A stretch of DNA of 57,058 nucleotides from a virus (taxonomy: Duplodnaviria; Caudoviricetes), in the IMG/VR virus record IMGVR_UViG_3300032236_000596, positions 1 to 57,058 of that record. One strand, 5' to 3'. The translations under genes were made by a program, and so were the position numbers. Below are positions 1-12,084 of this stretch, one piece after another. The notes beneath the pieces are model-generated. The model saw only the letters and a list, made by a program, of their open reading frames with translations, searched no databases and was not told the DNA's origin. How positions within the stretch are numbered: the first letter of the stretch is position 1; each line of letters starts with the position of its first letter.

Positions 1-171
1 ACCACAGAAGCCACACCAATCGAAGCCGAGACAGACGAGGATGCGATGTTTTCGGCTGTCGCCAAGATACTGAACCGTGCTCACGAGAACCCAGAGGGCG
101 TTTGGGGCAAGGGTGAAATCACCCTAAAGGATGAAGCAGGCGACACCGTAGCAGAAATGGCAGGTAAATAA
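1..171 (+). CDS. Partial small acidic protein (5' end outside window)
   Basis: Frame 1 is open to TAA at 169-171 (TTEATPIEAETDEDAMF...) and has the EA-x-x-(E/D)-(E/D)-A motif seen in neighbouring genes. Confidence 0.6.
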   Translation, partial: TTEATPIEAETDEDAMFSAVAKILNRAHENPEGVWGKGEITLKDEAGDTVAEMAGK

Positions 172-172
172 G

Positions 173-379
173 ATGATTAGAACCTATGACGACATATCAA
201 ACGCCGTAGACCACTGGGCGCTAGAAATCTTCAGGTCATACCCACTTGATAGGCTTGTGAACCTCAAGGCCGTATTCAACAAGCAAAAGCACGAGGCCGA
301 GCGTAATGGGGATGAGAAGGGCGCATTTGGCTCTCTAATCCTCGAACGCCTAGTTATCAGGGTTATTAGCGAACGATAA
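173..379 (+). CDS. Hypothetical protein
   Basis: 68-aa ORF directly after the upstream stop, followed by a terminator. Confidence 0.65.
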   Translation: MIRTYDDISNAVDHWALEIFRSYPLDRLVNLKAVFNKQKHEAERNGDEKGAFGSLILERLVIRVISER

Positions 380-391
380 CTAAAAACCCGC

Positions 392-433
392 CAGAGCGCC
401 TCACAGGGCTTCCTGTGGGGTGTTCTGCTTTCT
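392..433 (+). terminator. Intrinsic terminator-like hairpin
   Basis: cagagcgcctcacagg-gctt-cctgtggggtgttctg followed by ctttct. Confidence 0.6.
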
Positions 434-471
434 CAGGGAACTGGCAGAAAACTCACAGCAAACTCACAGAG

Positions 472-557
472 TTGTTGGGTTGGGCTGTTTATAAGTGCTG
501 TTGTGTGCCTACGCAAAAGCAGCTACGGCTACAGCTTTAAACAGCCCAACCCAACAA
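472..557. repeat. Palindromic element, copy 1
   Basis: Perfect 20-bp arms ttgttgggttgggctgttta (472-491) / taaacagcccaacccaacaa (538-557), extendable inward with bulges. Confidence 0.9.
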
Positions 558-577
558 ACCTGGGAACTGGCTGGGAA

Positions 578-596
578 CCTGTGAGTATCCTGTGAG
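578..596 (+). promoter_or_regulatory. 11-bp-phased CCTGTGAG direct-repeat pair
   Basis: CCTGTGAG at 578 and 589, with an inverted pair ACTCACAG at 451 and 462. The same pairing recurs at 1872/1883, 2609/2620, 3190/3201, 3912/3923, 3931/3942, 5627/5638 and 6023/6034. Confidence 0.75.
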
Positions 597-697
597 TTAT
601 CGAAAATAGGCTTGCCAGACTTGCGAGAGAGAGGGCGGTTTAGTAAGTTTGTCTTATCGGCACAGATGTTGCCGTGTAAGAGATAGGAAAAAACAAG

Positions 698-1699
698 ATG
701 GCCCACGCCCTCGAAATCAACGAAGCAACAGGCGAAACCGCATTTGCGCTACGCGGTGAGCCTGCATGGCACAAACTAGGCACCGTATTCGATGCCAACG
801 CCCACATCACCACCACCGAGATGCTAGAGATGGCACACCTCAATGACTGGGATGTTCGCCTAGAGGAACTGACCGTTCCCGAGGGCTACCGCTCAACAAC
901 CAAGCAACAGATGGTTTTGCGCACAAACCCGTTTGACCAAGGAACCGATGTTCTGGCAATTGTAGGCAACCGCTACAATGTCGTGCAGAACGAACACCTG
1001 TTTGCATTCGCCGACAACATCCTAGACGGTGGCGCAGACTGGGAATCGGCAGGCTCAATCAAGAATGGCAAGGTTGTTTTCGGTAGCCTTGTAGTTCCGC
1101 GAGAGTTCACCCTTGACCCAGAGGGCGCGAACGACAAGACCAAGACTTATCTGGTTGTTCACACCTCTCACGATGGCTCAACCGCGGTGCAGGCCAACAT
1201 CACGCCTGTGCGTGTTGTCTGCCAGAACACCCTGAACATGGCAATTCATGGCTCCAAGCAGTCTTTTAAGATTCGCCACACTGCAACCGTAGACGGCCGA
1301 ATCGATGAAGCGCGCCGAGTCTTGGGCTTGACTTTCGGCCACATGGATAAGTTCGAGGAGATGGCGCGCCAGATGTTCGAGACCGCAATCACCGATGCCC
1401 AGTTTGATAACCTTGTAAAGTCAATTTACGAGGAGCCAGAGCAGGGTTCGGCTAAGAGCGCGTTCACCGTTTGGAACGACAAGGTAGACCTGATTCACGA
1501 ACTCTACTCGAACGGAATCACCAACCAGAACATCACTGGAACCGCGTGGGGCGCGCTCAACGCCCTGACCGAGCGCATCGATTACTACCGAATCGGGCGC
1601 AAGGGTGGGGAAGCCATCGTTGCCGCGGCCTCGGGCTTTGACCCAGTGGTAAACGCCGAAAAGAACCGCATCCTCAACGCGGTTATGGCGATGGTCTAA
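698..1699 (+). CDS. DUF932 / TIGR03299-family phage-plasmid protein
   Basis: PAWHKLG, SHDGS and RVVCQNTL motifs; C-terminal GTAWGALNALTE; upstream SD. Confidence 0.85.
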   Translation: MAHALEINEATGETAFALRGEPAWHKLGTVFDANAHITTTEMLEMAHLNDWDVRLEELTVPEGYRSTTKQQMVLRTNPFDQGTDVLAIVGNRYNVVQNEHLFAFADNILDGGADWESAGSIKNGKVVFGSLVVPREFTLDPEGANDKTKTYLVVHTSHDGSTAVQANITPVRVVCQNTLNMAIHGSKQSFKIRHTATVDGRIDEARRVLGLTFGHMDKFEEMARQMFETAITDAQFDNLVKSIYEEPEQGSAKSAFTVWNDKVDLIHELYSNGITNQNITGTAWGALNALTERIDYYRIGRKGGEAIVAAASGFDPVVNAEKNRILNAVMAMV

Positions 1700-1710
1700 A
1701 CAACCGCCAG

Positions 1711-1741
1711 AACCCCTCCTAGCCTCGCTAGGGGGGTTTCT
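1711..1741 (+). terminator. Intrinsic terminator
   Basis: aacccctcctagc-ctc-gctaggggggtt followed by tct, directly after the DUF932 stop. Confidence 0.65.
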
Positions 1742-1764
1742 GCGTTCCCAGGGAACTCACAGAT

Positions 1765-1846
1765 TTGCTGGGTTGGATGCCTATTAGCCTAGCGATGCGA
1801 AGCGCGCAAAAAAGGCCCTTAGGCTAATAGGCATCCAACCCAACAA
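1765..1846. repeat. Palindromic element, copy 2
   Basis: 27-bp arms 1765-1791 / 1820-1846 with one mismatch in the outer part; 28-nt loop. Confidence 0.9.
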
Positions 1847-1904
1847 GCCTATTATCAGCAAACTCCCAGTTTCTGTGAGGTTCCTGTGAATAGGGCAGAA
1901 ATGC

Positions 1905-1933
1905 TTGGTAGGCGTGTCTAACTGCCCTACTAT
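1905..1933 (+). promoter_or_regulatory. Sigma-70/SigA-type promoter
   Basis: TTGGTA-N17-TACTAT downstream of the CCTGTGA pair. Confidence 0.55.
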
Positions 1934-1970
1934 GGAGATACATAGGAAACGCAAACAGAAAGGCAAGACT

Positions 1971-2411
1971 ATGTGGGAGAACCAAGAGAACAACGAGAAC
2001 CAGACCGAGGCCGAGGCCGAGGTTATCAAGCCAACTTACGAGCAGTTGGAGGAGGGCTACAAGACCCTCGAACTACAAATCAAGATGTTGACCGAGGGCC
2101 GAGATGGGTGGCGCAACCGCTACACCGAGGCATCGGGCAGGGTTGAGGAACTCAACACCTACCTGACCGACAACTGGGAGGAACTGGGCGACCACGCCGA
2201 GACCATCGCAGACATCTTCGGTCTGGAAACCACGATTACCAAGACCGTTCGCTGGTCTGTGGAAATCGAGATGAACATCTCGGCCAGCCGCAACTTCGAC
2301 TTCGACAGCCTTGACGAGGGCGACTTCTACATCGATGTAAGCAACCGAGGCGGAAACGACATCGAAATCGAAGATGTCGACTGGTCAGGCACGGACATCT
2401 CGGTAGATTAG
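1971..2411 (+). CDS. Hypothetical acidic coiled-coil protein
   Basis: ATG at 1971 follows an AGAAAGG SD; the longer ORF-track start at 1905 overlaps the promoter. Confidence 0.75.
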   Translation: MWENQENNENQTEAEAEVIKPTYEQLEEGYKTLELQIKMLTEGRDGWRNRYTEASGRVEELNTYLTDNWEELGDHAETIADIFGLETTITKTVRWSVEIEMNISASRNFDFDSLDEGDFYIDVSNRGGNDIEIEDVDWSGTDISVD

Positions 2412-2467
2412 CAAGATTGGTAAGGGGCGGGCCTAGGTCTGTGAGCCTAGCGCCCCTTATCTCCCTT

Positions 2468-2511
2468 TCCCCCGTAGGAGCACCCCCTCGCTCCTACGGG
2501 GGATTTCTTTT
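2468..2511 (+). terminator. Intrinsic terminator
   Basis: tcccccgtaggagc-accccctc-gctcctacggggga followed by tttctttt. Confidence 0.75.
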
Positions 2512-2592
2512 GCTGGGTTGGCTGTCTATTGCTGTAGCGGGCCGTTTTCCGCTCGCATAGCTCTTTACAGCAATAGACAGCCAACCTAACAA
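2510..2592. repeat. Palindromic element, copy 3
   Basis: 27-bp arms 2510-2536 / 2566-2592 with a perfect inner 15 bp; 29-nt loop. Confidence 0.9.
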
Positions 2593-2699
2593 GTCTGTTA
2601 TCCCCAATCCTTAGAGTTTCCTGTGAATTGGTCTGCGCAGGTGGCTTTTAGAGAGAGGCCGTGTAATGTAGTAATACCACCCACGAGAGAGGAAACCAA

Positions 2700-3188
2700 A
2701 TGGGATTGGACATGTATCTATCGGCACGAAAGTATGTTGCCAAGGTTGATTGGGAACAGACACGCAAAGACCCTGATAGCCCTTATGTAATCACCGAGGA
2801 TTACAAGGCTGTTATGGCACTAGCACCAGAGGGAATTGACGAACTCGCCGATGTATCTGGCGCAAACATAGAGTTCCCTATCGGGTATTGGCGCAAAGCC
2901 AATGCTATCCACGGCTGGATTGTTGAGAACTGCGCTGGTGGCGAGGACAACTGCCAACCAGTTCGCCTGCCTCTTGGCAAGTTGATGGAACTATCTGCCC
3001 TTGTTGATGAGGTCTTGGAGTCAAAGAACGCAGGCCTATTACCTCCTGCCGAGGGCTTTTTCTTCGGCACTTACGAGATTGACGAGTGGTATTTCTCTTA
3101 CTTAGAGAAAACCAAGGCTATTATGGACAAGGCCAAGGTTCTTGCCGACAGCGCACAATACGACATCTACTATCAGGCAAGTTGGTAA
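2700..3188 (+). CDS. Conserved phage hypothetical protein (MGLDMYL...YWRKAN family)
   Basis: MGLDMYL start, GYWRKANAIHGW, GFFFG and YYQASW end; AGAGAGGAAA SD. Confidence 0.8.
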   Translation: MGLDMYLSARKYVAKVDWEQTRKDPDSPYVITEDYKAVMALAPEGIDELADVSGANIEFPIGYWRKANAIHGWIVENCAGGEDNCQPVRLPLGKLMELSALVDEVLESKNAGLLPPAEGFFFGTYEIDEWYFSYLEKTKAIMDKAKVLADSAQYDIYYQASW

Positions 3189-3258
3189 TCCTGTGAGTTC
3201 CCTGAGAATTGACCTCGACACGCTCAAAATGTCGCACCCCACTAATAAGGTAGGAAGT

Positions 3259-3585
3259 ATGAAAACACTAAACAGAAACGGTATCGCCAAGCGATACGGG
3301 GTAGATTACTCAACTGTGTTCGGCTGGACTAAGGACACCTCGTTCCCAGCCTCTATTGGTAAGCGCAAGCACGGGGCGTTGTTTTGGAACGCCAATGAAG
3401 TCTATGCTTGGGTATCAACCAACCGCCCTCATAACAAAATGGTTAAGGTAATCAAGGTGGCAACACCAGTAGAACCTATCCAGCCTGTTATCCAGCCAAG
3501 CACCACCACCTTGGAGGTAATCAACCTCCTGCTCAAAGACGACAAGGCCAAGCAGCGTCTGGTCTTGGACTTGCTACTAGACTAG
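3259..3585 (+). CDS. Xis/AlpA-like winged-helix DNA-binding protein
   Basis: IAKRYGVDYSTVFGW...FP...W...EV..W pattern; ATG at 3259 after a TAAGGTAGGA SD. Confidence 0.7.
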   Translation: MKTLNRNGIAKRYGVDYSTVFGWTKDTSFPASIGKRKHGALFWNANEVYAWVSTNRPHNKMVKVIKVATPVEPIQPVIQPSTTTLEVINLLLKDDKAKQRLVLDLLLD

Positions 3586-3594
3586 GGGGTGAGT

Positions 3595-3672
3595 ATGGCA
3601 ACTCCAAAGACCCCAAAGCCTAAGCAAGGCAACGGCGCAACAATTAGGATTACTGACGGCAGACGAAAGTAA
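3595..3672 (+). CDS. Putative 25-aa basic micropeptide
   Basis: MATPKTPKPKQGNGATIRITDGRRK with a GGGGGTGA SD. Confidence 0.4.
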   Translation: MATPKTPKPKQGNGATIRITDGRRK

Positions 3673-3813
3673 TCTGGCTAAACTCCCCGCCCGCCCACTC
3701 GCGAACACGAAAGCGGGCGGGGGTTTCCAGCCCCCACAGGCTCACAGCGTTGGAGACGCCTCACTTATTGAGGCTTCGATGCGTGAGACCTGTGGGGGTT
3801 CTCCTTATCAGGC

Positions 3814-3894
3814 TTGTTGGGTTGGCTTCTATTCGGCTATAAAGCTGTTTTTGTGGGCATGGCCCTCATAGCCGAATAGAAGCCAACCCAGCAA
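3814..3894. repeat. Palindromic element, copy 4
   Basis: 27-bp arms 3814-3840 / 3868-3894 with one T.G pair in the outer part; 27-nt loop. Confidence 0.9.
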
Positions 3895-4035
3895 GTTTAT
3901 TATCATGCTTACCTGGGAGTTCCCTGAGAACCTGGCAGTTTCCTGTGAATGTGTCGCAAGAGGTGTCGGGAACTGGCATTTGCCTATCTAAGAGAGTAAT
4001 GTCGTATTTGTAATCCCAACAGAGAGGAAACCTAA

Positions 4036-4248
4036 ATGGGAAAGCGGTATGTAATCACCAGCACTATCGAGTTCGGCTACGAAAGCGACCACGGCGAGTT
4101 CGCCAGTATGGAGGAGGCAGAGGCGTTCGCAGGCAACTACGACAACCTTATGTATTACGCCGTAGACAGCCAAGACATTGAGGAAATCGAAACTTGCGAC
4201 GACTGCGAGCAGGACTTGGATGCCTGCGACTGCGAGGAGGAGGAGTAA
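4036..4248 (+). CDS. Small acidic hypothetical protein
   Basis: AGAGAGGAAA SD; C-terminal CxxC...CxC. Confidence 0.75.
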   Translation: MGKRYVITSTIEFGYESDHGEFASMEEAEAFAGNYDNLMYYAVDSQDIEEIETCDDCEQDLDACDCEEEE

Positions 4249-4427
4249 TGGCTACCTTTGTAGTTCAGGTAAACGAACTTATTATCCACACAACAGAGGT
4301 GGAGGCCAGCACCGAGGAGGAGGCTCGCCAACTGGGTATCGGCATTATCCTTGACGGGCCAGACACCCTTTACAACACCGACAGCGATGGTATCCAGGCT
4401 ATTTATGTATACGGGGAGAACGACTAA
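4248..4427 (+). CDS. Small acidic protein, DpnD/PcfM-like
   Basis: TAATG stop-start coupling; TEVEASTEEEA motif. Confidence 0.7.
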   Translation: MATFVVQVNELIIHTTEVEASTEEEARQLGIGIILDGPDTLYNTDSDGIQAIYVYGEND

Positions 4428-4681
4428 TGCGCGATTACTACCCATACTGCGAGAGGTGCTTGGAGAAACCAGCACCAGACGCCAAAGAGTTCTACGACTA
4501 CCGCTTTGATAAGCCTATTTGTCTATCCTGCGTTGAGGAGTATGGCTTAGAGCCAACTTCTTGTGGACACTCTAAGTTGGAATGCCCTAAGCACGGAGGC
4601 GCATTTGATTGTACGCCGTTCTGCCAAGTATGCGAGGGCAATCAGGAATACTGCCCGTTCTGCGATTACAAGGCGGAATAA
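4427..4681 (+). CDS. Cys-rich zinc-binding hypothetical protein
   Basis: Multiple CxxC motifs; TAATG coupling. Confidence 0.7.
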   Translation: MRDYYPYCERCLEKPAPDAKEFYDYRFDKPICLSCVEEYGLEPTSCGHSKLECPKHGGAFDCTPFCQVCEGNQEYCPFCDYKAE

Positions 4682-4830
4682 TGAATATCAAGCCTAATAA
4701 AGTCAATGTAATCGTCTGCCCAGCCTGTAAGGACACGGCAGAGATAGATACCCGAAACGGCGGTATCAAGATAACGCCCTGTTCCTGTGTAATTGCTGAG
4801 GAACTAGACAACTACACCACCAAGCAGTAA
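4681..4830 (+). CDS. Small zinc-ribbon protein
   Basis: CPAC...CSC; TAATG coupling. Confidence 0.6.
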   Translation: MNIKPNKVNVIVCPACKDTAEIDTRNGGIKITPCSCVIAEELDNYTTKQ

Positions 4831-4855
4831 AGTAATCACAGAGAGGAAACACGAA

Positions 4856-5089
4856 ATGGAATACGAAGTACAGCAAAAGGCCACCGTTTGGTACAAGATT
4901 ACGGTGGAGGCTAATAGCCCTATTGAGGCTATCGAGAAAGTACAAGAAAGCATCCACCTTACTGATGCGGAGAACGCCTCTTGGTGGCTTATCCAAGACA
5001 GCGAGGAGTTCCAAGACGAGTACTGGACAGAGGAAACTGGCCTCTACGATGGCAAGACTGGTACATACGAAAATCAGGCGGATAACTAA
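4856..5089 (+). CDS. Small acidic protein, DpnD/PcfM-like
   Basis: ITVEANSPIEA motif; AGAGAGGAAA SD. Confidence 0.75.
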   Translation: MEYEVQQKATVWYKITVEANSPIEAIEKVQESIHLTDAENASWWLIQDSEEFQDEYWTEETGLYDGKTGTYENQADN

Positions 5090-5254
5090 ATGGGTAAGTT
5101 CTTGATACAAAAGCGTGTCTTTGAGGACTACGAGGCAGTCGTTGAGGCGGAAAACGAGGATGAAGTCTATGACCTTGTTGCCAATGACGAAGTTGAGTGG
5201 CAGTTCATAGCCAGCGATGATGACGGGCTTATTATCGAGGAGTACAATGAGTAA
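5090..5254 (+). CDS. Small acidic protein, DpnD/PcfM-like (54 aa, not in ORF track)
   Basis: MGKFLIQKRVFEDYEAVVEAENEDEVYDLV..., directly after the previous stop. Confidence 0.7.
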   Translation: MGKFLIQKRVFEDYEAVVEAENEDEVYDLVANDEVEWQFIASDDDGLIIEEYNE

Positions 5255-5342
5255 GCACAGATACCCAATAAGCCCATTAGAGGTAGTAATTTCGGCCCTT
5301 GGCAGGATTATTATCCGCCTTACAGAGATACACGCAGTCCTA

Positions 5343-5371
5343 TTGACTAGACAGGGTAGAAAGAGTAGGAT
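5343..5371 (+). promoter_or_regulatory. Sigma-70/SigA-type promoter
   Basis: TTGACT-N17-TAGGAT. Confidence 0.65.
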
Positions 5372-5377
5372 GTAGTA

Positions 5378-5490
5378 AAGACTTGCGGTAGCGGACCCCT
5401 TCCCCCTACCGCACCAACGCTGGGCTTCTATCCTTTCTGTGCCCAGCCGAGAGCCCCCAGGTGCCCCCTATCCGCCTGGGGGCTCTCTTT
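5378..5490 (+). ncRNA. Candidate three-hairpin small RNA
   Basis: Follows the promoter. Stems at 5384-5391/5406-5413, 5419-5425/5441-5447 and 5449-5463/5473-5487, then TTT. No SD-led ORF. Confidence 0.55.
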
Positions 5491-5491
5491 A

Positions 5492-5507
5492 TGTTTCACG
5501 TGAACCA
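5492..5507. promoter_or_regulatory. parS-like site
   Basis: TGTTTCACGTGAACCA, a 15/16 match to the parS consensus TGTTTCACGTGAAACA. Confidence 0.65.
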
Positions 5508-5529
5508 AAACAAGCCTATTACGCCGAAA

Positions 5530-5612
5530 TTGCTGGGTTGGAAGCCTTTATGCCTAAGAGCCGTTTTTGCTCGCTCCGCACCGCATAGGCATAAAGGCTT
5601 CCAACCTAACAA
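5530..5612. repeat. Palindromic element, copy 5
   Basis: 27-bp arms 5530-5556 / 5586-5612 with a perfect inner 15 bp; 29-nt loop. Confidence 0.9.
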
Positions 5613-5663
5613 GTTTATTACGGTTTCCTGTGAATTCCCTGTGAATACGGCGTGTCGGCTTGA

Positions 5664-5959
5664 CCATAGAGAGAGGAGAGAGTAAGCTACGCCGGCCAGG
5701 GGCTCGAATTATAACGATTTGATAACGGGGGTTGCCATTTCCCCATAGAGAGAGTAAGGTATGCCACCCCGCCATAGAGAGAGGAGATAATAGGGCTGTT
5801 TAGGCTACTGCCTAGAACTTAATAGGCTTGCGTAGGGATAAGGCCAGATTTACAGCCTGTTTCGGCTGAAACATAGTTGCTATGACTATTGACTTATCGG
5901 TCTCTATGGTGTAAGTGCTACAACCAATATAAACCCTCTCTCTAGATGTATCTCTATGG
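5664..5959. repeat. CCATAGAGAGAG repeat cluster
   Basis: Direct copies at 5664, 5743 and 5772; inverted partial copies TCTCTATGG at 5901 and 5951. Confidence 0.75.
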
Positions 5960-6143
5960 ACTAGAGGTGGAATTAGTAATGCGCCCTTTCCCTTTCCTGA
6001 TGAGCAGGGCTATGCGAGAGAACCTGAGAGTTTCCTGTGAGATACAGAAATGCCTTGTTCTAATACCTGAATAACCCACTAAAATCGAGAGGTGGCAGAA
6101 AGTCTGCCCAGACCGCACACAGAAAGCGAGAGTGAGAGCGATT

Positions 6144-7535
6144 ATGAGCATCGCCCTACTTATCCAAAGCAACACCGATAACGGAGTTCTACAGACTGTT
6201 ATCGTTCCTACTAACCGAGAGGTCCTTACGTTCCACCGCCTCTCTACGGGCTTGCGAGGTCGTGCCTCACGCTGGCAGACCGCAGACCTAGACACCTTGC
6301 CAAGCGCACCTACCACCTACGCACCTGTAAGTGTCGTGCTATCGCCTAAAGATGTCGCAAACGCCGAACTGGGCAACATCACCGCCCTCTCGGTCAAGTT
6401 GCTCGGTATCCCTACCGACAGCGGAATTGACCCTGTGCCTCACAATGAGCAGGTGGCAGAACTTGTTGAGGCGCTATTCTCTGGCGACAGCGACTTGCTA
6501 AACAAGTTTGTTAGCGACAACCGCCGAAAGAACCCAATGGTGTTCGACCCTATCGGCGAACTGACCACCGCCTACTTTCCAGCAATCGCACCCGTAGAGG
6601 AAACCAAGCCTGTTATGGCAGAACCAGCACCAGCGCCAATTCCTGACCCAGCACCAGCCAAGACCTCGGTGGCTATGCCTACCGAACTTGCTAAAGTGCC
6701 AGACAGCAAGTGGGCAGAGACCTACCTCCACCGAGACGTAGTGAGCAAGGTTAGCGAGTTTGCTATCTATGACGTGGCTATGGCGAACCACCAGAACGTC
6801 ATTATCGAGGGTCCAGCAGGTTCGGGCAAGACAATGAGTATCCTCGCCTATGCGAGTGAGCGTGGCTACCGCTACTACAACGTATCGGCGAACGTAGGAC
6901 TAGAACCAAGCCACCTATTCGGCGCTTGGACACCTACCGAGACCGCTGGCGTATTCACTTGGCAAGACGGACCAGTAACCGACCTCGTTCGACACGGAGG
7001 CGTGCTGTTGCTAAACGAAATTGACTTTATGCCCGAGCGAATTACTACAGTCCTATTTGGCTTGCTAGATGACCGCCGAGAAATCCAGTTGCTTGAGCGT
7101 GGTGGCGAGGTAATCAAGGCGCACCCGAACCTCCTAATCGTGGGCGACCACAACCCGAACTACCGAGGCAGTCGCCCGATGAACCAAGCGTGGAAAGACC
7201 GCTTTGCCCACAAGTTGTCGTTTGGATACGACAAGTCAATCGAACGCAAACTTATTAAGTCCAAGACCTTGCTTGAGGTCGCCGACAAGTTGCGCCAGTC
7301 GCACGACAAGGGCGAAATCGACACGCCAGTATCGACCAGAGGTTTAATAGCCTTTGTAAAGAACGTTGAGAACCTCGGTCTCGACTACGCCCTGACCTCC
7401 TACGTCAATGGCTTTGGCGTAGACGAGCGTGAGGGCGTGAAGTTGGTGCTGGACACCTTTAAGGCAGGTCTCGGCAAGGACTTTGGCGTTGAGGTCAAGA
7501 CCAGCACCAAGCAAGCAGACGAGGACCAGAACTAA
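6144..7535 (+). CDS. MoxR/CbbQ/CobS-family AAA+ ATPase
   Basis: Walker A GPAGSGKT, Walker B LLLNEID, WQDGPV, NPNYRG and AWKDRF. Confidence 0.9.
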   Translation: MSIALLIQSNTDNGVLQTVIVPTNREVLTFHRLSTGLRGRASRWQTADLDTLPSAPTTYAPVSVVLSPKDVANAELGNITALSVKLLGIPTDSGIDPVPHNEQVAELVEALFSGDSDLLNKFVSDNRRKNPMVFDPIGELTTAYFPAIAPVEETKPVMAEPAPAPIPDPAPAKTSVAMPTELAKVPDSKWAETYLHRDVVSKVSEFAIYDVAMANHQNVIIEGPAGSGKTMSILAYASERGYRYYNVSANVGLEPSHLFGAWTPTETAGVFTWQDGPVTDLVRHGGVLLLNEIDFMPERITTVLFGLLDDRREIQLLERGGEVIKAHPNLLIVGDHNPNYRGSRPMNQAWKDRFAHKLSFGYDKSIERKLIKSKTLLEVADKLRQSHDKGEIDTPVSTRGLIAFVKNVENLGLDYALTSYVNGFGVDEREGVKLVLDTFKAGLGKDFGVEVKTSTKQADEDQN

Positions 7536-9631
7536 TGGCTAAGAGCGTTCGACAAGGCGAGGGCGACCAGTTTGATTACTGGAACTCTTGGCAAGCCTAT
7601 ATACAAGAATACGATATCAAGCCTGTTTCGACTGGCGTTCAGGCTGTCGCAGAGCGTATGCGTGAGGCAGGGCTGACCGAGGAACAAGCCCGAAAGGAAC
7701 TAGCGGAGGAATACTACGCCCAGCGTGAGGAGGCGCAGAAGTATGGGCGCACCCTCCAAGCCCGAAAGGACCAAGAGGCGCTCGTTCGCAACAACGAACT
7801 GGACAGCGCTTGTGCGGTCTATCAAAAGGCAGACCGTATCTTGACTGGCAAGCCTATTAACGTGTTCCTTAATGACGTAGATGAACCTACGCCAGCGTGG
7901 AACGACGGCGTTAATATTACGTTTAACGTTAATGCCATTAAGACATTAACCGAGAACCACCTACTCGCTCACCACGGGCTGAACTACCACGAACTAGCGC
8001 ACCTGTTCTACACGCCTCGTATCGGTTCTGCCCTCGGTAAGTGGGTAATGGAAAACAAGACTGTTAAGAACGAGCACGTTCGCCCTACTGTAGCGGTTGA
8101 TGAAAGTGGCGAACTTGTCTATGGCACCGAGACCTACTACACCGAGCAAACGGAACTGGTGGATAATCGCCGACAGACTGCCTTTAACATATTGGAGGAC
8201 AGTCGTGCCGAATATTACCTCATTACGAAGTTTCCAAGCGCTCGCCCGTTCTTGGTCGCTACTATCGGCGATTACATAGCCAGCAATGCTGACGACATAG
8301 TTAATAACTTTATGTTGCTCGTAGGTCGTAAATACTTTGACCTTGACGTGCGAATTATGTCGGCGCAGGGCTATGCCCGTGTCTATGGCGAGGACAATGC
8401 TAAGGCTATTTACAACGTAGTTGCCGAGTATCGCACCCTCGTATTCCCTCGCCAGTTTGACCGAGCGAAAGAACTAATTACCAAGTTAGTTAATCTCTTG
8501 CCAGAGGACTACCAGCCGACCAGCCCTAAGCACCGAGACGGCAAGGGCAACCAGTCCTCGCTTGGACCGACTGGCTGTAGTGGTCGCCCTCTTATGAGGA
8601 ACGGAAAGGTTGAGAGCGAGAAAGCCCAGAACGACCTTATGGACAGCGCCGACAAGACTGACCAACTTGGCGAGGCTATCGATGTCGGCAAGGGCGCAGA
8701 CAACAACACGGGCAACGCCCAGAACCCGAACTGGGAAACTGTTGAGGCTGAACTTACCGAGAAAATTAACCAGTTAGTTGAGCAAGCCAAGCAAGACCCA
8801 GCGGTCAAGCGCAAGGTCGTGGACACTATCAAGGCTATTAACAAGGACACCAGCACCAAGTCTATGCTCGGCAAGGCAACCGCCGAGAGCGTAGAACCGA
8901 CAGCGCAGGACATTACTGCCAGCCGACTGTTCGCCCAAGAACTTGAGCGTATCCGTATCGACAGCGACCCAGCGTGGGAACTTGAGCGACCAACTGGCAA
9001 ACTGAACGTTCGCAGGGCTATTAACGCCGACATTAACGATATCGGCAGACTGTTTGACCGCTGGACAACTGGCAACGACAACCACGAAATCGAGGCGACA
9101 GTCCTCCTCGATAGGTCTGGCAGTATGTCGCACAGTATCGGCGCAGTCTGTCGCTCGGCTTGGATTATCAAGCGTGCTATCGAAAAGATATCAGGGCGAG
9201 TATCTGTTCTCTCGTTTAGTGATGTTAGCCGAGTGCTTTACAGCGCAGACGAGAAAGCAGGGGCAACCGCTAAGGTCGTCAATGCTAACGGAGGCACAGA
9301 CCCGTTCTATTCGCTTAAGGAAAGCGAGAGGGTGCTGACCCAGAGCAAGGCTAAGACCAAGTTGCTGTTCTTGCTGACTGACGGAGGGTTTAGCGAGGCT
9401 GGTAATGACGACATTATCCAGCGCCTCCAGCGTGAGGGCGTGTATGTCGTGGTCGTGTTCTTGTCTTACCCACAATGGCTAGAGCAGATACTAAGCGACC
9501 CTAAGGCAGTCGAGAAATACGGACACGGGGCAGACCTGTTCAGGGCAATCGGCGACCCACTAGACCTCGTTAAAATTGCTAAGAGCGTGGTCAAGGCTAT
9601 GGCTGGTAATAAGAACCGAGCAGTCGCATAA
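7535..9631 (+). CDS. vWA-domain protein with N-terminal HExxH motif (CobT-like MoxR partner)
   Basis: YHELAH...FNILED; MIDAS DRSGSM, GGTD and LTDG; coupled to the ATPase gene. Confidence 0.88.
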   Translation: MAKSVRQGEGDQFDYWNSWQAYIQEYDIKPVSTGVQAVAERMREAGLTEEQARKELAEEYYAQREEAQKYGRTLQARKDQEALVRNNELDSACAVYQKADRILTGKPINVFLNDVDEPTPAWNDGVNITFNVNAIKTLTENHLLAHHGLNYHELAHLFYTPRIGSALGKWVMENKTVKNEHVRPTVAVDESGELVYGTETYYTEQTELVDNRRQTAFNILEDSRAEYYLITKFPSARPFLVATIGDYIASNADDIVNNFMLLVGRKYFDLDVRIMSAQGYARVYGEDNAKAIYNVVAEYRTLVFPRQFDRAKELITKLVNLLPEDYQPTSPKHRDGKGNQSSLGPTGCSGRPLMRNGKVESEKAQNDLMDSADKTDQLGEAIDVGKGADNNTGNAQNPNWETVEAELTEKINQLVEQAKQDPAVKRKVVDTIKAINKDTSTKSMLGKATAESVEPTAQDITASRLFAQELERIRIDSDPAWELERPTGKLNVRRAINADINDIGRLFDRWTTGNDNHEIEATVLLDRSGSMSHSIGAVCRSAWIIKRAIEKISGRVSVLSFSDVSRVLYSADEKAGATAKVVNANGGTDPFYSLKESERVLTQSKAKTKLLFLLTDGGFSEAGNDDIIQRLQREGVYVVVVFLSYPQWLEQILSDPKAVEKYGHGADLFRAIGDPLDLVKIAKSVVKAMAGNKNRAVA

Positions 9632-10076: not shown

Positions 10077-10502
10077 ATCCAAACTTTCTTACCTTATGCC
10101 AACCCAGCAAAATCGGCTGAGGCGCTGGACTACAGGCGCTTGGGCAAGCAACGCGTAGAGACATACCAGATACTCAACAGCCTGATAGGGGCGAGCAACG
10201 GGTGGCTGAACCACCCAGCGGTGAAGATGTGGGCAGGATATGAGATAGCCCTAGCCGACTACGGGCTGGCGATGTGCGACGAGTGGATAGCCAGAGGCTA
10301 CAAAGACACAACGAGAGATAAGATACTGGAGATTAAGAGAGGGCTGGTCGCTGGGGGAGAGGGCGGAGAGAACCCCTGGTGGCTGGGAGAGGAGAACCTC
10401 CACCTATCGCACCAGAGCAATCTACTACGCAAAGACCCTATTTACTATGGGCAGTTATTTATAGGAATACCTGACGATATGCCCTACGTCTGGCCCGTTT
10501 AA
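10077..10502 (+). CDS. Pyrimidine-dimer DNA glycosylase / endonuclease V family (MSMEG_6728-like)
   Basis: QTFLPY...LDYRRLGKQRVE, HPAVKMWAGY, SHQSNLLRKD and YVWP. Probable start is ATC at 10077; the ORF-track ATG at 10029 lies inside the -10 box. Confidence 0.85.
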   Translation: MQTFLPYANPAKSAEALDYRRLGKQRVETYQILNSLIGASNGWLNHPAVKMWAGYEIALADYGLAMCDEWIARGYKDTTRDKILEIKRGLVAGGEGGENPWWLGEENLHLSHQSNLLRKDPIYYGQLFIGIPDDMPYVWPV

Positions 10503-10632: not shown

Positions 10633-12084
10633 CTATGAGTTGGGCGGGTCAATCTGCTTAATAACCTCATTAACTTGGCTTTCGTTGAGGCCGCCATTAG
10701 GCAATTCGTTCAGGATTTGCGCCCTATCACCGAACAGCGCAGACATCACGCCAGCACTTCCAGAGCGTTCTACAGTCATTCTAATAGTCTCTTTTGACTG
10801 GTCCATCTTGGCAATTTGCTCAAGCATTTTAAAGAAACGGTCCATCTCCTGACCCACGTTAGGGTCTGGATAACCACCATTTAGGTCCTCGGTAAACTTG
10901 GCAAATGCCACTCGCTGCCCTTGTATTTCAAGGAAAGTGTTAATAAGCGCCTTAAGTTGGTCCTTGGTCTTTACCTCCAGCGGGAGATTAAACGCACACG
11001 CGTTGTCTGGCACAAACGCAGGGCAGTTATCCCTGACGAAACAGGTATTACATTGACGTAGGCTATTGCCAGTAGAGCGAGCAACAGGCACGTCTCTTAA
11101 TACATCAACACCATTTTCGTCGGTCTCGATACTGCGCGAAAAGTCGATACCGATGACCGGCAGCGGGCGAATTTCGTCCGGTTTACGTGCTACAACTTTC
11201 CGCTTCTCGACCCCCCTCATGGTAACATCAACAGGGGTAGTTTCCGCTTTTTCGGGGGGTAGCATATCGTCACTCATAGTTACTATGTCCGTTCGGTTAT
11301 TCCACGCTTCTAACTGCTGGTAGGACCAAACTGCTAGTTTAGATACCTCAATAGCGTCATCGGCTAATATCTTATCAAAGTCCAGCCCTGCCTGCTGATA
11401 TACAGCACGATAACGGCTTCTGGCTTGGTCTTTCATACGCTTCGGGTAACGGGTTAATGTATTAGCCTGCCATACAATCGTCTCGCCCCTCATCATTGGC
11501 GACAGCCACGCAAGGGTGGCGGCCGTAACGAACGGCGACTTACGCAGGCCCTCAAGTTTAGCCATACCTAGCGCGTGGAACTGTGTTCCGTGCTGGCTGC
11601 TGAACTTACGCATCTGGGCTTCCAGCGAAGGGTCTTTCTCTATTAAATCGCCCTGAATACAGACGTTTAAATATCTAGTTGCTAGGCTTTCTAGGTTTCC
11701 ACCATTATAAATAGCGGCGAACTTCTCGTCAGGCACGTCGTCCCAAGCGCCCTGGCGCTGCGCCTGGATGAACTCATCAGAGGCGCTAGGGTGGTTAATC
11801 TCAGTAAATAGGCTAATTCTATTTAGGTTAGTAGCAATAAAGTCCTCGTAGTCCGCTGCGAACTCCTCCAGCTCATCAGCGGTCATCTCCTTCGAGGACG
11901 GGATGCCAGGGTAAACGTGTATATGAACGCCCTCGGTGAAATAGTTTTCTAGCAAATACGTCTTGGTTTTAGGCAATCCACGGCGGACTAGGCCCCAGTA
12001 ACTTACGCCGACGTGGGTGGCGCTCTGCTGCTCAAGGATTAGGCGGTTGCTTGGGACCTCGGCCCCTAGGAATACAATATTCAT
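10633..12084 (-). CDS. Degenerate TGT/DpdA-like barrel protein with C-terminal Cys cluster
   Basis: Motif order VSYW, DYEDFI, FHALG, PFVTAATLAW resembles phage TGT-like proteins; CNTC..C..C near the C-terminus. Confidence 0.55.
   Translation of the reverse strand: MNIVFLGAEVPSNRLILEQQSATHVGVSYWGLVRRGLPKTKTYLLENYFTEGVHIHVYPGIPSSKEMTADELEEFAADYEDFIATNLNRISLFTEINHPSASDEFIQAQRQGAWDDVPDEKFAAIYNGGNLESLATRYLNVCIQGDLIEKDPSLEAQMRKFSSQHGTQFHALGMAKLEGLRKSPFVTAATLAWLSPMMRGETIVWQANTLTRYPKRMKDQARSRYRAVYQQAGLDFDKILADDAIEVSKLAVWSYQQLEAWNNRTDIVTMSDDMLPPEKAETTPVDVTMRGVEKRKVVARKPDEIRPLPVIGIDFSRSIETDENGVDVLRDVPVARSTGNSLRQCNTCFVRDNCPAFVPDNACAFNLPLEVKTKDQLKALINTFLEIQGQRVAFAKFTEDLNGGYPDPNVGQEMDRFFKMLEQIAKMDQSKETIRMTVERSGSAGVMSALFGDRAQILNELPNGGLNESQVNEVIKQIDPPNS

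Follow-up and report, generated by a model that had tools for sequence, protein, structure and literature searches.

The early genes of the window (the whole 57,058-nt stretch of phage DNA analyzed here) are punctuated by five palindromes of 81–86 bp, and the question raised by this locus is what these elements are and what they do. All five were re-found at the places and with the lengths given by the sequence-only reading that had pointed them out (Table 1). At no more than one mismatch, TTGYTGGGTTGG matched the window 12 times compared to 0.67 times in shuffled sequences, with none of 100 shuffles containing 12 matches; 10 of the 12 were arms of the five elements. The inner 15-mers had been quoted correctly and pair perfectly in copies 2–5, the loops of which fall in the claimed range of 27–29 nt. 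Comparison of copies 2 and 5 stem to stem returned the four differing inner positions described earlier, all mirrored in the opposite arm. Element 1 is atypical in its interior, with an inner stem of 8 bp and a branched centre of 46 nt. In the closing helix, element 2 carries a single C-A mismatch at position 4, element 3 a C-A mismatch at position 4 and a G-T pair at position 6, and element 4 a T-G pair at position 4. Predicted folding of the elements as RNA gave −46 to −59 kcal/mol (z-scores −6 to −11, both strands) and as DNA −27 to −32 kcal/mol (z-scores −7 to −11). A covariance model run over the whole window found no copy beyond the five. By eye, the loop of element 5 appears inverted relative to orthologous copies.

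Table 1 Palindromic elements and neighbouring features of the window.
Feature	Position	Strand	Details
Terminator-like hairpin upstream of element 1	399..433	+	T-rich tail; stem from CCTGTG/CACAGG
Element 1, type A	472..557		86 bp; closing helix perfect over 12 bp
CCTGTGA-type direct-repeat boxes after element 1	578..595	+	11-bp spacing
Terminator-like hairpin upstream of element 2	1713..1746	+	T-rich tail; after DUF932 gene
Element 2, type A	1765..1846		82 bp; inner stem 15 bp perfect; loop 28 nt
CCTGTGA-type boxes of the same kind	1872-1890, 2609-2627, 3190-3208, 3912-3949, 5627-5645, 6023-6041		
Intrinsic-terminator-like site adjoining element 3	2468..2513	+	14-pair stem; tail TTTCTTTTGC
Element 3, type A	2510..2592		83 bp; inner stem 15 bp perfect; loop 29 nt
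Two consecutive hairpins upstream of element 4	3675..3800	+	GC-rich; T-rich tails
Element 4, type A	3814..3894		81 bp; inner stem 15 bp perfect; loop 27 nt
Terminator-like hairpin upstream of element 5	5449..5496	+	Tail TTTATGTTT
Element 5, type A, last copy	5530..5612		83 bp; inner 15-mers pair perfectly; loop 29 nt
Inferred right boundary of collapsed direct terminal repeat	5729..5771		From contig depth; flanking CCATAGAGAGAG repeats

The surroundings of the elements were as originally described: a GC-rich terminator-like hairpin with a T-rich tail can be read from the sequence before every copy, and CCTGTGA-type boxes lie downstream of every copy. Under a strict scan in which the T-tract must abut the element, copy 3 alone passed in the window, its left arm directly continuing the T-tract of the terminator upstream. 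Of 59 copies considered, 58 had, in the 60 nt upstream, a hairpin with a folding energy of −17 kcal/mol or lower, and a T-rich tail abutted the element in 25/59 upstream flanks compared to 7/59 by the same test on downstream flanks. Downstream of the copies come direct-repeat boxes and promoter-like sites. Each early unit comprises one to seven genes and is equipped with a promoter-like site and a terminator-like hairpin of its own. Copies occupy the short interval that separates the terminator-like hairpin of the preceding unit from the operator-like boxes and promoter-like site of the one that follows.

The family is also present in related uncultured phage contigs, and 60 distinct copies were gathered from the sources scanned. 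In all copies, a conserved 12-bp closing helix (TTGYTRRGTTGG paired with CCAACYYARCAA) surrounds one copy-specific hairpin, or two in some relatives. The inner stems of the 60 copies contained 836 Watson–Crick pairs out of 837, one G-A mismatch and neither G-T nor A-C. Relatives also carry a second architecture, type B, in which the 12-mer is flipped in the same context as type A; this point is absent from the sequence-only reading. The closing helices were Watson–Crick at 423 of 444 pairs in type A (12 A-C, 7 G-T and 2 other) and at 276 of 276 in type B. In an alignment of 19 copies from six genomes, 97.5% of cells were paired compared to 78.6% after shuffling, and both sides had changed in 86 cells compared to 25, neither value being matched by any of 500 shuffles. 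The alignment and the 60-copy counts bear out the claim of copy-specific, covarying stems: this is a real family in which both sides change together.

Conservation differed between the parts of the element. Between two relatives, the 12-mers were identical at 119 of 120 positions, compared to 87.8% in the shared flanking block, most of which is coding, while element interiors in the same block were identical at 211 of 266 positions with changes mirrored in the opposite arm. The 12-mer is kept by its letters, and the interior only as a perfect palindrome that diverges faster than the flanks. The proposal that structure rather than sequence is maintained thus holds for the inner stem, where pairing is kept and letters are not, but not for the closing helix. 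The 12-mer is present across genomes of 44% to 52% G+C. Because element length varies without steps (75–94 bp in type A, 66–106 bp in type B) and type B is flipped in the same context, the folded form matters rather than linear spacing. Loop orientation, too, seems by eye to flip between copies, and single 12-mers occur outside the array (four exact in G008, five in G002).

The element had gone unrecognized before, and no Rfam family matches it; in the literature searched, the 12-mer was absent from any relevant context. The elements appear to be an undescribed family of DNA palindromes, which we call junction hairpins, carried by uncultured freshwater myoviruses of one clade, the hosts of which are probably actinobacteria.

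We infer their function, and tentatively prefer to view them as DNA palindromes that fold in vivo, are recognized through the 12-bp box, mark and insulate the joints of early units and serve as recombination joints. In vivo, the two arms would base-pair on the same DNA strand, forming a hairpin in single-stranded DNA or a cruciform, and one arm would be corrected against its partner; this would account for the lack of mismatches and wobble pairs. A putative conserved factor, probably phage-encoded, would read the 12-bp box; comparison of the gene content of element-bearing genomes with that of the element-free G011 named no plausible DNA-binding protein. The physiological role of the elements would be to demarcate and insulate neighbouring early units that are under separate control, so that neither transcription nor supercoiling carries over from one to another; as a by-product, the shared boxes would act as joints for the gain, loss and swap of cassettes. 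The lack of G-T wobble in 837 pairs favours a DNA hairpin or cruciform over a purely RNA structure, in agreement with the single-stranded hairpin or cruciform suggested earlier. A non-palindromic centre, here of 21–46 nt, would be expected to disfavour spontaneous cruciform extrusion from duplex DNA, and the DNA may therefore fold only when single-stranded. Templated correction in the course of replication can also produce perfect arms in the absence of any selection on structure.

Comparison of related genomes bears on the recombination part of this reading. Homology of the window to the relative G003 runs up to the right-hand edge of element 2 (1847), beyond which G003 has an extra 178-aa gene and an element. 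G007 has one gene-plus-element unit more than G009, a comparison in which loops were also seen to have been exchanged among elements. Some cassette gains and losses thus end exactly at elements. In the close strains of runs X2 and X4, 3192–3595, 4245–4422 and 5078–5246 are missing or replaced at element-free gene borders, and gene turnover is not tied to elements. Gene content thus changed at element boundaries in two cassette gains or losses, and away from them in the three single-gene gains or losses of the close strains.

Mean contig depths, which are not copy numbers, halve at 5729–5771 in run X1 (24.1 and 23 compared to 11) and run X2 (42.3, 38.8 and 30.1 compared to 20.5), and the depth of run X4 fits the same halving. 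These depths point to a long direct terminal repeat, collapsed in assembly and ending near 5.75 kb, with all five copies inside; that the array apparently lies wholly within such a repeat is a point absent from the sequence-only reading. In agreement with this, 10 of the 24 related loci have a contig end no more than 600 nt upstream of the AAA ATPase gene, and the relatives' equivalent of the last element lies 460–650 nt upstream of that gene. Contigs also break in or at element 4 in two runs. In whole relatives, all perfect hairpins of at least 16 bp, terminator-like ones aside, were in the array, showing that copies are confined to it.

A rather unlikely alternative is that the elements serve terminal-repeat metabolism, the hairpins forming when the repeat is single-stranded (for example during end resection, repeat annealing, strand-displacement copying at packaging or DNA entry) and then acting as priming, pausing or protection sites. 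Every copy is within the doubled-depth region, the last about 150 bp from the boundary (element 5 lies about 120–160 bp inside it), and 9 to 12 copies fill about 9 kb in the two near-complete relatives scanned. Symmetry and perfect Watson–Crick pairing would suit a signal able to act on either strand of the DNA, and there would be a parallel with the conserved palindromes and inverted repeats of the long terminal repeat of phage T5, which are linked to the T5 injection stop signal. The exact placement of each copy from terminator to next promoter is left unexplained by this alternative, and the repeat itself is deduced from contig depth. Moreover, similar genome plans do without elements: none was found in G011 (complete, about 50% protein identity), in the first 30 kb of Streptomyces phage BRock or in the first 14 kb of Karimac, taken to include the terminal repeat. 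The elements are therefore dispensable in related phages.

Action as RNA is also unlikely. Here, transcription would read past the terminator, and the resulting perfect RNA duplex of 25–31 bp would be cleaved or bound by a factor specific for double strands, either RNase III or a protein of the phage that reads the 12-bp helix. This would part the upstream RNA from the downstream RNA, on the model of the RNase III sites found between phage T7 early genes. The elements are very stable as RNA on either strand and lie between tandem early genes downstream of possibly leaky terminators, and a duplex that only has to fold would account for both the need for a palindrome and a 12-bp helix facing either way. 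However, G-U pairs are nearly neutral in RNA helices, and none was found among the 837 inner-stem pairs; on the sense strand of the closing helix, A-C mismatches outnumber G-U pairs (12 compared to 7). The terminator T-tract abuts the element in 25/59 copies, so that most transcripts should stop before it, and the apparent flipping of the loop likewise speaks against action as RNA.

It is improbable that the elements are a selfish or near-neutral palindromic repeat, similar to MITEs or REPs, that spreads or persists with cassettes, has its arms kept perfect by replication template switching and gives the phage no benefit beyond promoting shuffling. Interiors that evolve faster than their flanks with arms changing in concert, swapped and apparently flipping loops, a copy number of 0 to about 12 among related genomes and the lone 12-mers outside the array all fit such a repeat. 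A 12-mer conserved above the flanking, mostly coding DNA and a constant position relative to terminator and promoter do not, and no integrase, resolvase or Y1 transposase is encoded in the five genomes searched. Nor is the motif enriched in the candidate host genome (1.3 Mb), where three hits outside a phage-like contig compare to about 1.2 expected by a uniform estimate.

The sequence-only reading had also raised an integron-like cassette system, in which the folded single strand would be an attC-like recombination site and an unrecognized recombinase would swap cassettes. The part of PMC5027507 consulted gives the attC consensus as RYYYAAC / GTTRRRY, and the closing helix fits it (ACCCAAC/ACTCAAC and GTTGGGT/GTTGAGT, respectively). 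We estimate that this consensus would turn up in about 1% of random 12-mers. Type B copies have the order and geometry of attC, the variable and sometimes branched interior resembles the attC variable terminal structure, and the two cassette gains or losses stop at elements. The system is nevertheless very improbable, given that six-frame searches of five genomes (three at least 97% complete), which recovered their positive controls and widened the earlier remark that no recombinase is visible in the window, found no tyrosine recombinase, serine recombinase or Y1 HUH enzyme, that the two boxes are in reverse order in the window's five copies, that the stems have neither extrahelical bases nor an unpaired central spacer, that the units carry promoter-like sites and terminator-like hairpins of their own and hold 1–7 genes each, and that the three close-strain changes lie away from elements.

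Several known systems resemble the junction hairpins in part. As with the T7 RNase III hairpins, a handful of hairpins punctuates early genes located at whichever genome end is the first to enter. The T7 sites lie within one long transcript without terminators between genes and contain internal loops, whereas each element described here follows a terminator-like hairpin and has perfect stems. REP, BIME and REPIN sequences and small MITEs of the Correia type are similarly short intergenic palindromes after gene ends that can fold on either strand. These repeats occur at high copy number in host chromosomes, have conserved stems and are frequently associated with a Y1 transposase; the copies described here are phage-specific, their stems vary by copy and no Y1 enzyme was found.

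A parallel in location is with T5-like phages, whose terminal-repeat non-coding repeats and palindromes are kept better than the genes there, according to the part of bioRxiv 10.1101/866236 consulted. In both systems, non-coding palindromic or inverted repeats lie in a terminal repeat of roughly 10 kb that carries the first-expressed genes, are better conserved than adjacent genes, and include a repeat-rich non-coding stretch spanning the terminal-repeat end. As described in that part of the source, the T5 repeats differ in being clustered in three untranslated regions, in including DnaA boxes and a 131-bp inverted pair kilobases apart and in not providing one hairpin per transcription unit, and perfect stems that vary by copy within a shared closing box are not described there.

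Integron attC sites, as presented in the consulted part of PMC5027507, share with the elements a position at cassette borders, folding as a single strand, and conservation of the closing helix around an interior that varies and is sometimes branched; they differ in that the present system has no integrase, the opposite box order in the window and cassettes with promoter-like sites and terminator-like hairpins. A likeness in genomic role is offered by the PeSL (promoter-early stem-loop) of T4-type phages, which the consulted parts of PMC2839356 and PMC4122927 describe as a sigma-70-like promoter plus a terminator or attenuator stem-loop, with G-T pairs marked in a figure legend. Both are small repeated non-coding motifs with a stem-loop that mark the junctions between small, functionally uncharacterized early genes in plastic genome regions; gains, losses and replacements among relatives often end at them, and a part in modular shuffling has been proposed for both. 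Unlike PeSL as described in those parts, the palindrome here is a third part between a separate terminator-like hairpin and promoter-like site, combines a conserved 12-bp closing box with a wobble-free, copy-specific interior in two arm orientations, and is confined to the inferred terminal repeat.

The five palindromes that the sequence-only reading had placed between the early gene units are present as claimed. Allowing at most one mismatch, the shared outer arm TTGYTGGGTTGG has 12 matches in the 57 kb window compared to 0.67 in shuffled sequence, and ten of these matches are arms of the five elements. Each copy reads 5'-TTGYTRRGTTGG, interior, CCAACYYARCAA-3' (type A), so that the 12-mer arms form a 12-bp closing helix (the box) around a copy-specific inner stem and loop. 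Copies 2–5 contain perfect 15-bp inner stems, different in sequence from copy to copy, and loops of 27–29 nt, as had been described, while copy 1 departs from this form with an 8-bp inner stem and a branched center of 46 nt. Folding of all five copies is far more stable than that of shuffles, whether as DNA or as RNA of either strand. Immediately upstream of element 5, the segment 5509–5523 reads AACAAGCCTATTAC, resembles the conserved right flank of the elements and may be a remnant half-site. The novelty suggested for the elements held against Rfam, in which the whole window matched only two tRNAs at gathering thresholds; at permissive thresholds, positions 300–6200 and three related loci gave sub-threshold matches only, mostly to microRNA-precursor families, as generic long hairpins do. 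No description of these junction hairpins, including their four 12-mers as strings, was found in the literature outside subscription journals and supplements. The element is an intergenic junction palindrome of phages, of a family that is apparently undescribed.

Related viral contigs proved to carry copies of the element, which were recovered by pattern scans, a protein-anchored scan and a covariance model; the last of these searches had been proposed together with the elements. Once duplicates were removed, the pooled sources gave at least 60 distinct copies. The covarying stems noticed among the window's copies extend to homologs. In an alignment of 19 copies from six genomes, 97.5% of the cells are paired compared to 78.6% in shuffles, and two-sided changes occupy 86 cells compared to 25, with none of 500 shuffles reaching either observed value. 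Sliding the partner columns abolishes the signal, and all changes in the ten inner-stem columns 25–34 are two-sided. Across 60 distinct copies, which are not independent because many are orthologs, 836 of 837 inner-stem pairs are Watson–Crick, with one G–A mismatch, no wobble pair and no bulged base beside the closing helix. Type A closing helices hold 12 A–C, seven G–T and two other non-Watson–Crick pairs among 444, two positions being tolerant, and wobble is not overrepresented on their sense strand. A metagenome pattern scan returned at least 116 stretches; among the matches listed, only two loci (L047 and L079) contain the hairpin, in a divergent form, and the others resemble chance. A second viral pattern scan contributed at least one new copy. 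Within the 57 kb window itself, the family-built covariance model detected none beyond the five. The same 12-mer closing helix around another interior occurs once in the Bifidobacterium felsineum chromosome (L303), as well as in these two metagenome contigs.

A second architecture, type B, was encountered in relatives (G numbers denote related phage genomes and L numbers loci from the scans). Here the 12-mers are swapped (CCAAC...AACAA, interior, TTGTT...GTTGG) and the loops are shorter, and some copies are compound, with two hairpins within the 12-bp closing helix. Both types occupy the same context and can share one array, as in G008 (four type A and five type B) and G007 (one type A and about ten type B); in G003, a type B copy stands where the window has the atypical element 1. 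Element length varies continuously, from 75 to 94 bp in type A and from 66 to 106 bp in type B, which suggests that the folded form is the relevant one and argues against a protein that bridges two sites at a fixed distance along linear DNA.

Coordinates and sequences of the elements and of associated features
Feature	Genome or locus	Position	Sequence or remark
Element 1	window	472-557	type A, atypical
Element 2	window	1765-1846	type A
Element 3	window	2510-2592	type A
Element 4	window	3814-3894	type A
Element 5	window	5530-5612	type A
Type B or compound copies	L284	737-5485	
Type B or compound copies	L294	769-1697	
Type B or compound copies	L300, L301		reverse strand
Type B or compound copies	G002	601-1647	
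Direct-repeat box	window		CCTGTGA
Direct-repeat box	G003, G005, G007		GTTYACCTG
Direct-repeat box	G001		TCGTTACC
Direct-repeat box	G002, G004, G008		ATCGTTAT or TAACGA
Boxes upstream of each early promoter-like site	window	578-595, 1872-1890, 2609-2627, 3190-3208, 3912-3949, 5627-5645, 6023-6041	CCTGTGA(A/G)T, 11-bp spacing
Three repeats within 5640-6130	window	about 5664, 5743, 5772	CCATAGAGAGAG
MoxR-type AAA ATPase and VWA protein	window	6132-9631	first operon beyond inferred repeat
Queuine-transglycosylase-like gene	window	10633-12084	
Lone exact 12-mer	window	10099-10110	minus strand
Lone exact 12-mers	G008	12590, 34970, 41361, 75219	
Lone exact 12-mers	G002	18305, 24863, 43535, 77018, 77987	

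Conservation is concentrated in the box. G007 and G009 share a block with 87.8% identity beyond its elements, in which the 12-mers agree at 119 of 120 positions and the interiors at 211 of 266; inner arms or loop differ in three of the five orthologous pairs, the arm changes always being mirrored. The lack of wobble, these mirrored multi-base changes against a background of about 90% identity and apparent inversions of loops, judged by eye, argue either for pairing of the two arms on a single DNA strand in vivo or for copying of one arm from the other. Genomes that range from 44% to 52% in G+C retain the 12-mer, whose seventh base is specific to the lineage. Lone exact 12-mers also lie beyond the arrays, four in G008 and five in G002 compared to about 0.01–0.04 expected by a uniform estimate; the majority are intragenic, and their positions differ between genomes. 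In a candidate host bin of 1.3 Mb, the 12-mer has three matches outside the phage-like contig compared to about 1.2 expected by a uniform estimate, and on this lack of enrichment a host Chi-like or host repeat motif was rejected. Given its conservation, its lone copies in phages and its unenriched state in the host bin, the box looks, from sequence comparison, like a phage-specific recognition sequence. Gene-content profiling of four element-bearing genomes (the window, G002, G007 and G008) against the element-free G011 returned about nine small proteins with the fitting pattern, none of a DNA-binding or nuclease family that would make it a candidate reader; a DUF1599 protein is one that fits.

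The surroundings of the elements are similarly ordered. A hairpin of −17 kcal/mol or lower lies upstream of 58 of 59 copies, and a T-rich tail abuts the element in 25 of 59, compared to 7 of 59 when the same test is applied on the downstream side. Within the window, copy 3 alone passes the strict abutting-tail test, and the other four have a hairpin and T-rich tail at a distance of 15–35 nt. Downstream are two to four direct repeats with a spacing of about 11 bp, followed by promoter-like hexamers and a AGAGAGAG-rich stretch. The sequence of the repeats depends on the phage while their place does not, as if a phage-specific regulator co-evolved with them. The boxes of the window were compared by eye with the DnaA box and fit it weakly, at six to seven of nine positions of a consensus drawn in part from bioRxiv 10.1101/866236; those of relatives likewise match at six to seven positions. 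Candidate −35 and −10 hexamers, also picked by eye, lie downstream of the right arm, past the boxes. A consensus promoter scan gave one site at element 2, whose right arm and flank it overlaps (1828–1855), and none at the other four elements. A promoter within the hairpin (−35, TTGYTG; −10 at the stem–loop junction or right flank) was rejected, as the hexamers are not conserved among copies and the scan site occurs at element 2 only.

The window, estimated as 62% complete in the IMG/VR virus record, encodes a contractile tail, DNA polymerase A, RecA, a DnaB-like helicase, a primase, a RuvC-like resolvase and a queuine-transglycosylase-like protein, the last of which suggests 7-deazaguanine DNA modification. 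Among cultured phages, it is closest to the BRock group of Streptomyces myoviruses, with which its proteins share about 40% identity. Early genes occupy the plus strand from 1 to 10.5 kb, and all genes beyond are on the minus strand. The relatives have one gene order in common (DUF932 gene, F1, ..., AAA ATPase, VWA protein), while the content between elements differs; related phages of this order (G000, G002, G007, G008 and G011) range from 40% to 52% G+C. The complete G011, the most AT-rich relative, has no long perfect hairpins, and none were found in the first 30 kb of Streptomyces phage BRock or the first 14 kb of Karimac. A WhiB protein encoded by a relative of 97% completeness and a phage-like contig of 15.9 kb with five elements (L304–L307), binned with an uncultured Rhodoluna, hint at the hosts, which appear to be abundant freshwater actinobacteria; the elements would thus belong to an ecologically important and little studied phage group.

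Assembly depth distinguishes the region of the elements from the remainder of the window. In the probable source run, the contigs spanning 1–3855 and 3872–5729 have depths of 24.1 and 23, and the next contig, of 18 kb from 5766, has a depth of 11. In an independent pond run, which contains a relative of about 93% identity, the depths are 42.3, 38.8 and 30.1 compared to 20.5, with the break at 5766/5771, and the depths of a third run fit the same pattern. One contig reaches 2.2 kb past the left end of the window, still at high depth. Of 24 related loci, 10 have their contig end at most 600 nt upstream of the AAA ATPase gene, and near-complete relatives have the array mid-contig, in a circular-type assembly, or wrapping the contig ends. 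Since mean contig depth is not copy number, we infer from this pattern that a direct terminal repeat, 8 kb long or longer, is collapsed in the assembly and probably ends at about 5.75 kb (depth drop at 5729–5771), with the start of the record inside it. The noncoding stretch of about 500 nt across this putative end (5640–6130) also carries a block that all relatives conserve, as well as boxes of the TATAACGA type, and may contain the end-forming site. In several assemblies, contigs start or stop within element loops (window 3855–3892; starts of L027, L292 and L295), perhaps because the orientation of the loops is mixed or because hairpins are difficult to sequence; in practice, the elements coincide with metagenome assembly breaks.

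The constant place of the elements between terminator and operator or promoter, in a gap predicted to be largely free of transcription, points to a DNA-level boundary or insulator between early units, a reading that we prefer tentatively. The conserved 12-bp box would then be read by a putative sequence-specific factor, and recombination at shared boxes would be a by-product. All five elements would lie inside the terminal repeat, and a role as a signal for the handling of that repeat is rather unlikely. We consider an RNA-level insulator, cut by a putative duplex-specific nuclease, to be unlikely. The elements may instead be near-neutral selfish palindromes, which seems quite improbable. It is very doubtful that the box and hairpins are the working sites of a DNA transaction new to tailed phages, whichever of two versions is considered. 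The first is single-strand cassette exchange at folded sites by an enzyme of an unrecognized family, favored by type B copies holding the attC R-box consensus in attC order. The second is a set of programmed nick or pause sites that split the terminal repeat in stepwise DNA entry or repeat copying, in which the ends left by the paired inverted boxes would fold on themselves. Such a transaction is supported by the factor proposed for the box, by DNA folding in vivo, which is very probable, by the confinement of the sites to the putative repeat and by contigs that begin or end inside loops.

An integron-like cassette system had first been raised from sequence alone. Gene content was expected to change at element borders, and two cassette gains or losses do so: homology between the window and G003 ends at 1847, at the end of element 2, after which G003 has an additional 178-aa gene and element, and G007 exceeds G009 by one unit. 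Three single-gene changes in close strains from two pond metagenomes do not, as 3192–3595, 4245–4422 and 5078–5246 (an excisionase-like HTH gene and two small genes) are absent or replaced with cuts at gene borders that have no element. In close strains, the spacer with element 3 (2467–2608) is also replaced or too diverged for alignment. Units between elements contain one to seven ORFs and are equipped with promoter-like sites, boxes and terminator-like hairpins of their own. The recombinase or HUH nuclease that was to be sought elsewhere in the genome did not emerge from five genomes (the window, G001, G002, G007 and G008). Six-frame searches gave no matches to tyrosine recombinases (PF00589; controls found in 14 of 14 genomes) or serine recombinases (controls positive), and Y1 HUH transposases (PF01797) likewise had none (controls positive); a Pfam scan detected no tyrosine recombinase in 49 window proteins or in the 80 of 102 G002 ORFs covered. 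With no tyrosine or serine recombinase in five genomes, units that carry promoter-like and terminator-like sites and three changes away from elements, an integron-like system is highly improbable.

In large virulent phages, terminal repeats hold the first-expressed genes, and their noncoding architecture is poorly understood. The elements provide a clean case, with a fixed 12-bp box that implies a reader, interiors that record intrastrand pairing in vivo and a fixed place between units. Finding the reader and its action could reveal insulation, timing or exchange of early host-takeover or anti-defense units, and could shed light on the handling of long terminal repeats.

Among known systems, attC R boxes read 5'-RYYYAAC ... 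GTTRRRY-3' on each strand, according to PMC5027507. The consensus 7-mers occur in the 12-mer, but the five copies of the window have them reversed (GTTRRRY ... RYYYAAC), whereas type B copies share the attC order. Extrahelical bases and an unpaired central spacer, present in attC, are missing from the junction hairpins, in which the inner stems are continuous, and attC cassettes are single-gene and promoterless, unlike the units bounded by elements. REP/REPIN sequences with RAYT have a Y1 partner and many copies in host chromosomes, in contrast to PF01797 in none of five genomes and a host bin that is not enriched. RNase III processing sites of the T7 type lie within a transcript and are cut by that enzyme; among the runs listed as containing this DNA, none was of RNA. 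The nearest described elements are the PeSL cassettes of T4-type phages and the T5 terminal-repeat palindromes, and the element fits neither definition. In PeSL, a sigma-70-like early promoter belongs to the repeated motif, whereas the junction hairpins have no conserved internal promoter; the PeSL stem-loop serves the preceding unit as terminator or attenuator. Here a separate GC-rich hairpin and T-rich tail lie upstream and no T-run follows the element. PeSL motifs lie in plastic regions, and gains, losses and replacements between relatives end at them, compared to two cassette changes at elements and three single-gene changes elsewhere. T5-type repeats, still unexplained after decades (bioRxiv 10.1101/866236), contain ordered DnaA boxes, compared to boxes that match that consensus by eye at six to seven of nine positions here. 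Like them, the elements probably lie in a long direct terminal repeat that holds the first-expressed genes, as judged from assembly depth.
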